From the sequence record MZ234011.1: a stretch of DNA of 40,482 nt. The stretch is one strand, 5' to 3'. The translations under genes and the position numbers were made by a program. Below, piece after piece: positions 9,396-33,684 of the stretch (the stretch's first letter is position 1; the number at the start of each line of letters is the position of its first letter). The notes below the pieces were generated by a model, which was not told the DNA's origin, did no database searches, and saw only the letters and a program-made list of their open reading frames with translations. This DNA is from Escherichia phage vB_EcoP-22664UKE3-2.

Positions 9396-9573
9396 ACCCC
9401 CGGTTACTTATAGTATTACTGTAGTGAATATACATATGCAGACTTTATGCAAGACCTTAGGAGGCAGACTCCGAGTTCTTACCTAAGGCTTGCACCGATG
9501 GAAGGAGGTGATATTAATCATAATCCCTCCAATACAGATAGTCACCGACCATAGATACAGGAGGTATGTAGCA

Positions 9574-9747
9574 TATGGCAAAGACCAAAGCTGTACTTAA
9601 AGCTCTGGCGACCAATCGAGCTACATACAGGTTTCTTGCTGCTGTTCTACTTGCTGCTGGCGTTACTGCTGGAAGTCAGTGGGTCGGGTGGGTCGGGTGG
9701 GTCGGGTGGGTCGAGACTCTCGTATGTACTCTGGTCTCTCAGTGTAA
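9574..9747 (+). CDS. Small Cys-rich ORF (57 aa) containing an in-frame tandem repeat (VGR x4); possible gene 19.5 analogue
   Basis: Manual translation MAKTKAVLKSSGDQSSYIQVSCCCSTCCWRYCWKSVGRVGRVGRVGRDSRMYSGLSV; RBS CAGGAGG about 10 nt upstream. May be non-coding. Confidence 0.25.
9681..9713 (+). repeat. Tandem repeat, 9-bp unit GGGTCGGGT x ~3.7
   Basis: Directly visible: gggtcgggtgggtcgggtgggtcgggtgggtcg. Confidence 0.85.
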
Positions 9748-9980
9748 TTAACGCAATCATGGTAACGATTCATGAGCGGAAGACCTAAGGTCAGTACGTG
9801 GATAAAGACTCACTCTACTGACCTTAGCTACTGTAGTCAAGGACTTTAGGTAACACCTTAAGAGAAGCTCACTTAGGGTCATCCTACTTATTGGTCTATC
9901 CTAGTGTCGCCTGACCTACGGTCCTTGACCTACAGTGGCTGTGGTCTACAGTAGTGACGATGAGTTTTGGACCAAAAGTT

Positions 9981-10180
9981 TGAGACCACATCTCACAGTT
10001 CAAGAACTTCAAGTCTCCCCCATAGGCCTCTTTCAGTCCAGACCAAAGGCCCTACCCCAGTCTATCATAAGGTTGGACCGATGGTCAAGACTTCAGGTCA
10101 ACGATAGGTTGTGGCTATGGCTTAGGGAAGGACGATAGGTTGGGACTATGGGTCTGTCTTTGAGTCTCTATCTGTATCAG
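9981..10180 (+). repeat. Putative genome left end / terminal-repeat region (approximate boundaries)
   Basis: TCTCACAGT...TCTCCCCCATAGG resembles the T7 left-terminal sequence as I recall it; lies between the phiOR-like promoter and the host-promoter cluster. Confidence 0.35.
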
Positions 10181-12236: not shown

Positions 12237-12464
12237 ATGAACACAATCACTGGTGCCATAGCCAAAGGTTTTCGAGCAATTTTCAGTGAATCGCAAGAAG
12301 TATGCACCAATCATAAATTCGTACTTTCTTGCGTAGTAGGGGACGAGTTTGACGGATTCGATAAACTGGTGGTTTGCGACCATTGTGGACAAGAGGCTAT
12401 CCAACGCTCAAACGGTAAATTTGAATTAATAGACGATAGCCTTACAGAAGGAGACGGCGAGTAA
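12237..12464 (+). CDS. Hypothetical early protein (75 aa) with Cys pairs (possible zinc ribbon)
   Basis: RBS GAGAGGA upstream; two Cys pairs including CDHC. Confidence 0.5.
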   Translation: MNTITGAIAKGFRAIFSESQEVCTNHKFVLSCVVGDEFDGFDKLVVCDHCGQEAIQRSNGKFELIDDSLTEGDGE

Positions 12465-31292: not shown

Positions 31293-31315
31293 ACTAAACT
31301 ATCACTATAGGGAGA
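31293..31315 (+). promoter_or_regulatory. Phage RNAP promoter upstream of major capsid gene (CTAAACTATCACTATAGGGAGACC), phi10-like
   Basis: Closest match to the strong-promoter core CACTATAGGGAGA. Confidence 0.7.
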
Positions 31316-31417: not shown

Positions 31418-32467
31418 ATGGCAAACGTTCCGGGTCAGAAAGTTGGTACAGACCAAGGTAAAGGCAAATCTGGTTCCGACGCTCTGGCGTTGTTCCTGAA
31501 GGTCTTTGCTGGTGAAGTCCTGACCGCATTCACTCGCCGCTCTGTAACTGCTGACAAGCATATTGTCCGTACCATTCAGAACGGTAAGTCTGCTCAGTTC
31601 CCGGTCATGGGACGCACCTCTGGGGTGTATCTGGCTCCGGGTGAGCGACTGTCCGATAAGCGTAAAGGTATCAAACATACCGAGAAAGTGATTACCATTG
31701 ATGGTCTGCTGACTGCCGATGTGATGATTTTCGACATTGAAGACGCGATGAACCACTATGACGTGGCTGGCGAGTACTCCAACCAGTTGGGCGAAGCTCT
31801 GGCTATCGCTGCCGATGGTGCGGTACTGGCTGAGATGGCTATTCTGTGTAACCTACCGGCTGCATCTGATGAAAACATCGCTGGTCTTGGCAAAGCGTCT
31901 GTGCTGGAAGTTGGTACTAAAGCAGACCTGAACACTCCGGCTAAGCTGGGTGAAGCAATCATCGGTCAACTGACCATTGCTCGTGCGAAGCTGACATCCA
32001 ACTACGTTCCTGCTGGCGACCGTTACTTCTACACCACGCCGGACAACTACTCTGCAATCCTCGCGGCTCTGATGCCGAACGCTGCTAACTATGCTGCGCT
32101 GATTGACCCAGAGACTGGTAACATCCGTAACGTAATGGGCTTCGTGGTTGTTGAAGTTCCACACTTGACTCAGGGTGGTGCTGGGGAAACTCGTGGTGCC
32201 GATGGTATCACTATTGCGACTGGTCAGAAGCACGCCTTCCCAGCTACTGCTACTGGTGATGTTAAAGTTGCTCTGGACAACGTTGTGGGCCTGTTCTCTC
32301 ACCGTTCTGCTGTAGGTACTGTTAAGCTGCGTGACTTGGCGCTGGAACGTGACCGTGACGTCGATGCTCAGGGCGACCTGATTGTTGGTAAGTACGCTAT
32401 GGGTCACGGTGGTCTGCGTCCAGAAGCAGCAGGCGCACTGGTTTTCACAGCGGCGTCAGCGGGTTAA
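31418..32467 (+). CDS. Major capsid protein 10A (T7 gp10A-like)
   Basis: TDQGKGKSGSDALALFLKVFAGEVLTAFTRRSV...KSAQFPVMGRT...KHTEKVITIDGLLTADVMIFDIEDAMNHYDV...ALMPNAANYAALIDPE...HRSAVGTVKLRDLALER...KYAMGHGGLRPEAAGA is co-linear with T7 10A. Confidence 0.97.
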   Translation: MANVPGQKVGTDQGKGKSGSDALALFLKVFAGEVLTAFTRRSVTADKHIVRTIQNGKSAQFPVMGRTSGVYLAPGERLSDKRKGIKHTEKVITIDGLLTADVMIFDIEDAMNHYDVAGEYSNQLGEALAIAADGAVLAEMAILCNLPAASDENIAGLGKASVLEVGTKADLNTPAKLGEAIIGQLTIARAKLTSNYVPAGDRYFYTTPDNYSAILAALMPNAANYAALIDPETGNIRNVMGFVVVEVPHLTQGGAGETRGADGITIATGQKHAFPATATGDVKVALDNVVGLFSHRSAVGTVKLRDLALERDRDVDAQGDLIVGKYAMGHGGLRPEAAGALVFTAASAG

Positions 32468-32730
32468 CGACCTTTAAGGCCCTCTCTACAGAGGGTCCTA
32501 CCTTAGAGACGTATAGTTCTACGGTGGGAACCAGCCTGAAGGTTGACTTCCCTGAGCTTTCAGATGTGACCGATTGGTCGCTGCTTGAGGTGACTACGCC
32601 TGATGGTGTTAGCTACTCCCGTAGAACCAACAGTCTCTACTTCAAGGCCACCTCTGGCGTGGAAGGTCTGGTGATTGTTGGGTATGACGGTACGCCTGTG
32701 CGTTCCTTCAACGTATCTTTCACAAACTAA
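31418..32730 (+). CDS. Minor capsid protein 10B via programmed -1 frameshift at slippery GGTTTTC (32440-32446)
   Basis: Slippery heptamer G GTT TTC lies 8 codons before the 10A stop; the -1 frame is open from there to a stop at 32728-32730, adding about 95 aa. Confidence 0.6.
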
Positions 32731-32734
32731 TTGA

Positions 32735-32776
32735 AACCCCTTGGGTGCCTTCGGGTGCTTGAGGGGTTTTTTTTTG
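32735..32776 (+). terminator. Rho-independent terminator (Tphi-like) after the capsid gene
   Basis: 13-bp stem CCCCTTGGGTGCC/GGTGCTTGAGGGG with UUCG tetraloop followed by T9; resembles T7 Tphi. Confidence 0.8.
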
Positions 32777-32790
32777 CTTAAGGAGGGACT

Positions 32791-32886
32791 ATGTTCCTTA
32801 TTTACACAGGGTTAGCACTATTCGTCTTATTCTGGGCGTACCTGCTGCCCAGCTCACCGTCTAGCCCTATGACCGCTAAGGAGTAA
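32791..32886 (+). CDS. Small hydrophobic ORF (31 aa) between the terminator and gene 11
   Basis: Strong RBS AAGGAGGG 5 nt upstream; MFLIYTGLALFVLFWAYLLPSSPSSPMTAKE; its stop overlaps the gene 11 RBS. Confidence 0.25.
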   Translation: MFLIYTGLALFVLFWAYLLPSSPSSPMTAKE

Positions 32887-32890
32887 ACCT

Positions 32891-33457
32891 ATGTCTCAAT
32901 ACATTCCACTTAATGCTAACGATGACTTAGATGCCATCAACGATATGTTAGCTGCTATTGGTGAACCAGCAGTCCTACAGCTTGACGAAGGTAACGCTGA
33001 CGTCTCGAACGCTCAACGTATCCTGCATCGTGTTAATCGTCAGGTCCAAGCTAAAGGCTGGAACTTTAACATCAACGAAGCTGCTGTCCTGACGCCTGAT
33101 GTCCAAGACAACAGGATTCGATTCCTGCCGTCTTACCTTCGGGTCATGACTGCTGGGGCCACCAGCTACTACAGCAACATGGGTGGATACCTATACGACC
33201 TGTCCACTCAGTCAACCACTTTCACCGACCCTATAACGGTAGAGCTTGTTGAGATGAAACCGTTCTCGGAGATGCCTGTGGTATTCAGGGACTACATCGT
33301 TACCAAGGCCAGCCGTGAGTTCAACGCTAAGTTCTTCGGTAGCCCAGAGTCTGAACTGTACCTTCGTGAGCAGGAATCAGAACTCTATCAGCAGGTCATG
33401 GAATACGAGATGGACACTGGTCGCTACAACATGATGTCCGACATCGGGAGGGACTAA
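32891..33457 (+). CDS. Tail tubular protein A (T7 gp11-like)
   Basis: DAINDMLAAIGEP...NAQRILHRVNRQVQAKGWNFNINE...FRDYIVTKASREFNAKFFGSPE...MEYEMDTGRYNM parallels T7 gp11. Confidence 0.95.
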   Translation: MSQYIPLNANDDLDAINDMLAAIGEPAVLQLDEGNADVSNAQRILHRVNRQVQAKGWNFNINEAAVLTPDVQDNRIRFLPSYLRVMTAGATSYYSNMGGYLYDLSTQSTTFTDPITVELVEMKPFSEMPVVFRDYIVTKASREFNAKFFGSPESELYLREQESELYQQVMEYEMDTGRYNMMSDIGRD

Positions 33458-33684
33458 TGGCTAGTCACAACCTGAAGATTCACCGCCAGCACTTTGGTCC
33501 GGTACAACTAGGTCTAAAGACAGCAGAGCTGAGACTTAACGACCGGGACTTTAAGGTTGGCGACTGGCTTATCCTGAATGAGTGGGACAACGGGTATACT
33601 GGACAACAGGTAGCACGTAAGGTTGTCCACATTGCTGACGTTGGGGACATCGCTGATGGATACGTCATAATGAGTATGATTTAA
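33457..33684 (+). CDS. Small ASCH/PUA-like (DUF3850-type) protein inserted between gp11 and gp12
   Basis: 75 aa; pattern LKIHRQHFGPVQLGLKTAELRLNDRDFKVGDWLILNEW resembles small ASCH-fold proteins from memory; T7 has no gene here. Confidence 0.55.
   Translation: MASHNLKIHRQHFGPVQLGLKTAELRLNDRDFKVGDWLILNEWDNGYTGQQVARKVVHIADVGDIADGYVIMSMI

Follow-up and report, generated by a model that had tools for sequence, protein, structure and literature searches.

Gene 10 of Escherichia phage vB_EcoP-22664UKE3-2 (MZ234011.1) very probably produces a minor, longer capsid protein through a -1 ribosomal slip at the GGTTTTC site known from T7, as judged from the sequence of this phage and its relatives. We analysed the whole 40,482-nucleotide stretch, referred to here as the window, and confirmed the presence of both the shift site near the end of the capsid gene and the -1 open reading frame (ORF) that follows it. 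The interpretation of these two elements as a T7-type frameshift is supported. By analogy with T7, we infer slipping in this phage and its efficiency (~10% in T7), as well as the incorporation of the longer product, 10B, into virions.

Layout of gene 10 and its shift site

The major capsid gene, 10A, occupies positions 31418 to 32467 on the plus strand as a zero-frame ORF of 349 aa. Its product matches the Pfam family Gp10A-like (PF21703, E = 1e-104) and is homologous to T7 10A (PDB 2xvr, E = 3e-145), while residues 1-344 are near-identical to the solved capsid chain 9vvq (714 bits, E 4e-214). The host of the shift site is thus a T7-type (Gp10A-like, HK97-fold) major capsid gene. The gene region is 99.9% identical to that of Escherichia phage vB_EcoP-101120B1-2 and shares at least 95% identity with 55 phage records, mostly Kayfunavirus or Escherichia phages (K1F-like, Autographiviridae, Studiervirinae). 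Upstream of gene 10, we identified a candidate promoter at 31293-31315 on the plus strand, ACTAAACTATCACTATAGGGAGA, the 3' end of which is CACTATAGGGAGA, the core shared by late promoters of the T7 group. This candidate lies in the same place as the annotated phi10 of T7, K11, and T3, and its resemblance to these suggests a phi10-type promoter for the phage RNA polymerase.

The slippery heptamer, G GTT TTC, lies in register at 32440-32446 on the plus strand, where the zero frame reads CTG GTT TTC and the Val and Phe codons are numbers 342 and 343 of 10A. The GTT codon lies eight codons 5' of the 10A stop (TAA, 32465-32467), which is six codons past TTC. The initial annotation had this spacing right but placed the start of the heptamer at 32437, which is the last base of an Ala codon (GCA), rather than at 32440. 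No stop interrupts the -1 frame between 32392 and 32727, and it ends with TAA at 32728-32730, leaving 94 sense codons after the slip (HSGVSGLTTFK...NVSFTN), in agreement with the roughly 95 codons to 32730 claimed earlier. The encoded extension contains the peptide ALSTEGPTLETYSSTVGTSLK.

A Tphi-like intrinsic terminator follows at 32733-32775 on the plus strand, with a 17-bp stem at 32733-32770 and a run of nine T's at 32767-32775 (folding -25.6 kcal/mol, z = -3.1). It begins 3 nt past the 10B stop, as expected from the earlier statement that the -1 ORF ends right before it, and Tphi is annotated at the corresponding place in T7, T3, and K11.

Two small ORFs were noted further downstream. A 31-aa hydrophobic ORF, MFLIYTGLALFVLFWAYLLPSSPSSPMTAKE, at 32791-32886 on the plus strand lies between Tphi and gene 11 and is preceded by AAGGAGG. 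MZ234022 lists this ORF as hypothetical, and both Peacock and K1F lack it, which makes it an insertion relative to K1F. A 75-aa ORF at 33457-33684, also on the plus strand, lies between the tail tubular genes 11 and 12, where T7 has no gene; its equivalent in EV136_1 is annotated as DUF3850.

The length of the open frame exceeds chance expectation. Within gene 10, the -1 frame carries 29 stops in 324 codons, and the probability of 94 open codons is ~1.5e-4. GGTTTTC occurs twice in the 40.5-kb window, at about the rate expected by chance, and the second occurrence, at 12267, does not lie in register. Among the long ORFs of the window, only gene 10 has a slippery heptamer in register within its last 30 codons.

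We propose that most ribosomes would read 31418-32467 without interruption to make 10A, while a minority would slip back by one nucleotide on G GTT TTC, with the pairing of tRNA-Phe changing from UUC to UUU and that of tRNA-Val changing from GUU to GGU. The slipped ribosomes would continue with CAC AGC GGC... in the -1 frame as far as TAA 32728-32730 to give 10B (31418..32446 joined to 32446..32730, plus strand), a minor capsid protein of 343 + 94 = 437 aa compared to the 349 aa of 10A. The product would consist of the 10A shell fold through Phe343, a linker of ~20 residues, and a 74-residue Ig-like beta-sandwich. Co-assembly of 10B with 10A would leave a fraction of the subunits bearing the domain on the outer surface of the capsid.

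Slip mechanism and conservation of the heptamer

In a canonical bacterial -1 frameshift cassette of the dnaX or IS type, an X XXY YYZ heptamer allows tandem re-pairing; G GTT TTC does not strictly follow the XXX-YYY-Z pattern. In the A site, UUC to UUU re-pairs well, while in the P site GUU to GGU re-pairs poorly. It is an accepted site in T7, where GGTTTTC is the gene-10 frameshift sequence and ~10% 10B is made (PMC1635266). Our search for additional stimulators covered both sides of the heptamer. No stem-loop or pseudoknot was found 5-9 nt downstream of it, the nearest stable hairpin being a 7-bp structure at 32479-32496 on the plus strand, 32 nt 3' of the heptamer. This hairpin is a doubtful stimulator: it is too far away for a classical 5-9-nt spacer, and it showed no compensatory change in an alignment fold of 11 relatives (covariation term +0.48). 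RNA structure across 32447-32530 was not significant (folding z = -1.6), synonymous variation was not depressed near the slip site (pS 0.189 vs 0.192 further on), and an Rfam scan of 32300-32900 gave no match above threshold. A Shine-Dalgarno-like element (AGGAGG) ~10 nt 5' of the heptamer was not conserved, as the Gly codon there ends in a variable base (GGC, GGT, GGA).

Subgroup-specific, fairly strong hairpins were observed in KP32 and K11, in CR8 and EV136_1, in T7, and in K1F. They begin ~13-36 nt past the heptamer (spanning +13 to +60 nt), which is too far for a classical stimulator. The gene-10 shift of T7 reportedly requires a distal 3' stimulator that includes Tphi, and the terminator of the window is in the same relative position as Tphi of T7. 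Taken together, a T7-type slip driven mainly by the heptamer is the best-supported reading.

The TTTT within the site, which the annotators of CR8 flagged as 'tttt', raises the question of whether the long form is instead produced by phage RNA polymerase slipping on the run of four T's. We find this scarcely credible. Four T's fall far below the run lengths known to support transcriptional slippage, and relatives use alternative sites, C CCA AAG and A AAG, of a kind classically associated with tRNA slippage. In T7, the shift at the identical heptamer is also said to have been characterised as translational. Ribosomal slipping thus remains the preferred reading.

The identical heptamer is found at the homologous position in T7, K1F, K11, KP32, CR8, EV136_1, ZCEC02, and Peacock; in the first seven of these, the zero-frame stop lies 3-6 codons past the heptamer and the -1 frame is open. 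The window's CTG GTT TTC aligns with GTG GTT TTC of T7 at a conserved ...GA(L/V)VF. Since codon preference alone would spell the heptamer in ~31% of L-V-F sequences, its presence in a single genome is weak evidence, and the weight comes from comparison. To this end, we used 110 unique T7-like capsid 3' ends from IMG/VR, picked solely by an upstream MGHGGLRPE motif. Among the GenBank loci, OP272493 was set aside because its assembly is too frameshift-ridden.

Within this set, 45 of the 46 sequences with an in-register GGTTTTC had a -1 ORF that continued for 37 codons or more beyond the 10A stop. In the other 64, such an ORF was present in 22 and absent from 42 (Fisher P = 9e-13, a value not corrected for phylogeny). 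Roughly half of these 22 carried a different recognisable slippery motif, either T3-type C CCA AAG or A AAG, or else a heptamer altered at one base (C/A GTT TTC or G GTT TTT), while no slip site was identified in the others. Sequences that keep L-V-F and have no extension use GTC or GTA as the Val codon.

Selection on the extension was measured with 13 distinct close relatives. The pN/pS ratio was 0.24 in the -1 frame compared to 1.2 and 1.8 in the control frames, and variable columns were distributed 23/17/56 over the three codon positions. Codons 8-26, the 19 codons between the 10A stop and the earliest possible start codon, a GTG at 32524, were constrained to the same degree (pN/pS 0.23) as the domain proper (0.21), indicating that coding constraint reaches back to the overlap with 10A. 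Because purifying selection includes a stretch 5' of any start codon, these data argue that the extension is not a separate gene.

This result bears on how the extension is usually annotated. Most records of the clade, including the 99.9% match MZ234022, show it as a separate hypothetical protein beginning at the GTG equivalent to 32524, and PHROG 7473 was built from such calls. If they were correct, the -1 ORF would be an independent, unfused gene of 68 aa (gp10.1) with its own start. The GTG is indeed present at 32524, but no Shine-Dalgarno sequence was found upstream of it, and it lies within the part of the domain that is predicted to form strand 1 (residues 21-26). The apparent start also shifts among relatives, with gene-caller fragments of 54, 63, 64, 68, 75, 83, 84, and 87 aa, and some relatives have no start codon at the position of the window's GTG. 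The -1 frame, on the other hand, is open back to the heptamer in every relative compared. We therefore consider an independent small gene very unlikely and favor a fused product.

Purifying selection of this strength is also difficult to reconcile with the -1 ORF being a decaying relic, in which the heptamer persists only through preferred codons for L-V-F and 10B is produced or incorporated in negligible amounts, if at all. A relic would be compatible with the ~31% expectation from codon bias, the lack of a detected local stimulatory structure, the loss of the C-terminal half of the domain and the terminator stem in IMGVR_UViG_2974604219, and K1F, which is entirely without the Ig-like domain. 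It would not readily account for a domain that is 42-50% identical across three genera with invariant motifs, for the tight coupling of heptamer and long ORFs, or for the length of the open frame relative to chance. We judge decay to be highly improbable, and continue with a selected extension reached by frameshifting.

The predicted Ig-like domain and the cassette that carries it

AlphaFold, run with a 17-sequence alignment, modelled the extension with a mean pLDDT of 81. Residues 1-20 (HSGVSGLTTFKALSTEGPTL, 32446-32505, plus strand) had a pLDDT of 48-53 and no secondary structure, consistent with a flexible linker. Residues 21-94 (32506-32727, plus strand) were predicted to be all-beta with a pLDDT of ~90, forming a two-sheet sandwich of ~7 strands that is superposable on known Ig-like domains. 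The predicted combination of a disordered linker and an Ig-like sandwich fits the initial suggestion that the extension could display a decoration domain. Two motifs of polar and aromatic residues in the domain, DVTDWS and RRTNSLYFK (RRTxSLYFK across genera), are invariant.

We then examined which families the domain belongs to. The extension matches PHROG 7473, which is labelled 'unknown function', and has no Pfam match. The only Pfam and PDB sequence matches, to carboxypeptidase and Rab, were dismissed as chance. Using tblastn, we found the extension in 454 phage records, covering Kayfunavirus, Przondovirus (K11 and KP32, ~44% identity), and Caroctavirus CR8 (50% identity); among the matches listed, it always lay at or just past the 3' end of the capsid gene. 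A word-indexed protein search returned only 28 short phage ORFs, which revealed no further protein context for the domain.

A full HMM search of 1.84 billion representative proteins yielded only fragments from phages, repeat matches judged to be spurious, and a single protein with BACON repeats. The ELWxxDG-repeat proteins (P0035, P0036, and P0038) matched through short repeated motifs over some 25 (23-32) profile positions and were disregarded. The match to the protein with 4-5 BACON repeats had E = 1.2e-11, a value summed over the repeats, with a pairwise hhalign probability of 40%, and there was no direct Pfam match to BACON (PF13004/PF19190). The BACON connection suggested by these profiles should be treated as a lead rather than a result. 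No match to Big_2 (PF02368) was detected in the extension at E up to 1, and homology to the Big_2 domain of T3 was rejected, as hhalign between the two families gave a probability of 1%.

By analogy with other phage Ig-like decorations, the domain most likely acts as an accessory that adheres weakly to surface or mucus glycans and is not needed for assembly. The assembly of cargo-bearing 10B into virions has been shown in K1F, where g10b::gfp virions fluoresce (PMC6277420). As a separate observation, IMGVR_UViG_2974604219_000001 carries a deletion of ~164 nt, equivalent to window positions 32603-32766. The C-terminal half of the domain is lost along with the 10B stop and the stem of Tphi, and the -1 frame is fused to a downstream small ORF. 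Unless it is an assembly artefact, this deletion implies that the domain is dispensable.

Comparison of the window with K1F showed 90-100% identity up to the heptamer, unrelated sequence from ~32450 to 32718, and homology again at the terminator. On this sequence evidence, the -1 cargo behaves as a swappable cassette, with the heptamer and the terminator as its boundaries. The cargoes found in this slot were a charged tail of the T7/K1F type, the window's domain, Big_2, two copies of Big_2, and, in one metagenomic contig, Big_2 with a GDSL/SGNH-like region.

Two of the IMG/VR sequences illustrate the larger cargoes. On the minus strand of IMGVR_UViG_3300034127_000003, a capsid ending in ...ALVF with G GTT TTT (capsid motif at 923, 10A stop at 983) is followed by a -1 ORF of ~470 codons (stop at 2395), and then by a Tphi-like terminator and gene 11. 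This ORF contains a Pfam Big_2 domain, GDSL/SGNH-like motifs (FEGDSLTAN, IFIHCGTNNY, and DGTHSN), and ~200 residues more, and may encode a capsid-displayed esterase made by frameshift. In IMGVR_UViG_651703078_000001 (9433-10020), a 176-aa -1 extension comprises two tandem Big_2 domains; the heptamer is absent there, and GAA AAG is a candidate slip site.

A broader, tentative hypothesis, which we think could hold but would not favor, is that the domain founds an unclassified Ig-like family, possibly related to BACON, that binds glycans, with DVTDWS and RRTNSLYFK forming the ligand site. Phages of the genera Kayfunavirus, Przondovirus, and Caroctavirus would carry it sub-stoichiometrically on the capsid to cling to capsule, LPS, or mucus, and the stretch between heptamer and Tphi would be a plug-in slot through which T7-family phages exchange surface cargo.

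Annotation and comparison with known systems

The annotation of the extension is inconsistent across databases. In ~450 GenBank phage records, it stands alone under the name 'hypothetical protein', 'minor capsid protein', or gp10.1, with varying starts, and MT862763 gives the label 'minor capsid protein 10B' to 10A itself. Its presentation as a separate protein in most records is a systematic mis-annotation. The feature itself is a routine example of a recoding system that is well known and ordinary for the T7 family, and our understanding of frameshifting or capsid biology is unchanged. The main value of the analysis lies in correcting the annotation in most of the 454 matching records and in pointing to an uncharacterised family of Ig-like domains. 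The site also offers a natural, tolerated position for display on therapeutic K1F-like and Klebsiella KP32/K11-like phages. By analogy, the domain may serve as an accessory adhesin, and could affect how these phages behave in mucus or on capsulated hosts.

Among the closest known systems is 10A/10B of T7 (Teseptimavirus). As the initial annotation proposed, the T7 arrangement is reproduced in the window, with a homologous capsid gene, G GTT TTC at homologous codons, and a -1 ORF that ends before Tphi. However, the T7 extension is charged and of low complexity (…LTPAQEAARTRAANKARKEAE…), with no Pfam domain and no relationship to the window's 94-aa beta domain. It is also shorter, at 56 aa after the slip compared to 94 aa. 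The earlier remark that the extension is considerably longer than in T7 therefore holds, but its length is not unusual, as the annotated 10B of T3 is ~433 aa.

The cargo can also be compared with that of T3 (Teetrevirus), in which a -1 extension of ~90 aa with one Ig-like domain brings 10B to ~433 aa, compared to 437 aa in the window. A 2026 preprint describes the T3 10B extension as a predicted Ig-like, mucin-interacting domain reached via frameshift (10.64898/2026.06.25.734500). T3 differs from the window in its slip site, C CCA AAG instead of G GTT TTC, and in its domain, which is assigned to Pfam Big_2 (E = 2.7e-10), a family to which the window's domain gave no match. At the level of predicted fold only, the window's domain also resembles the C-terminal domain of lambda gpV, T4 Hoc, and, as a lead only, BACON, with no significant membership in their sequence families. 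Cryo-EM capsid models of relatives (9vvq and phage H5) contain the 10A fold only.

Within its own genus, the window shares the heptamer and the sequence upstream of it with the type species, K1F, although the K1F tail is short, T7-type, and 48 aa long, and its cassette is non-homologous. CR8 (HG818824) has a homologous extension (50% identity) and a record that describes 10B as arising by -1 frameshift, with 'matches in mass spectrometry', an annotation that does not specify whether junction or extension peptides were matched. Peacock (MK903279) is near-identical to the window, with 98.5% DNA identity, the same heptamer, and a 94-aa extension that differs at four residues, and its record annotates a joined 'minor capsid protein' produced by -1 frameshift with the same join as in the window. 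The 10B described here is thus known already from Peacock, as are its homologue in CR8 and a long Ig-like 10B in T3.
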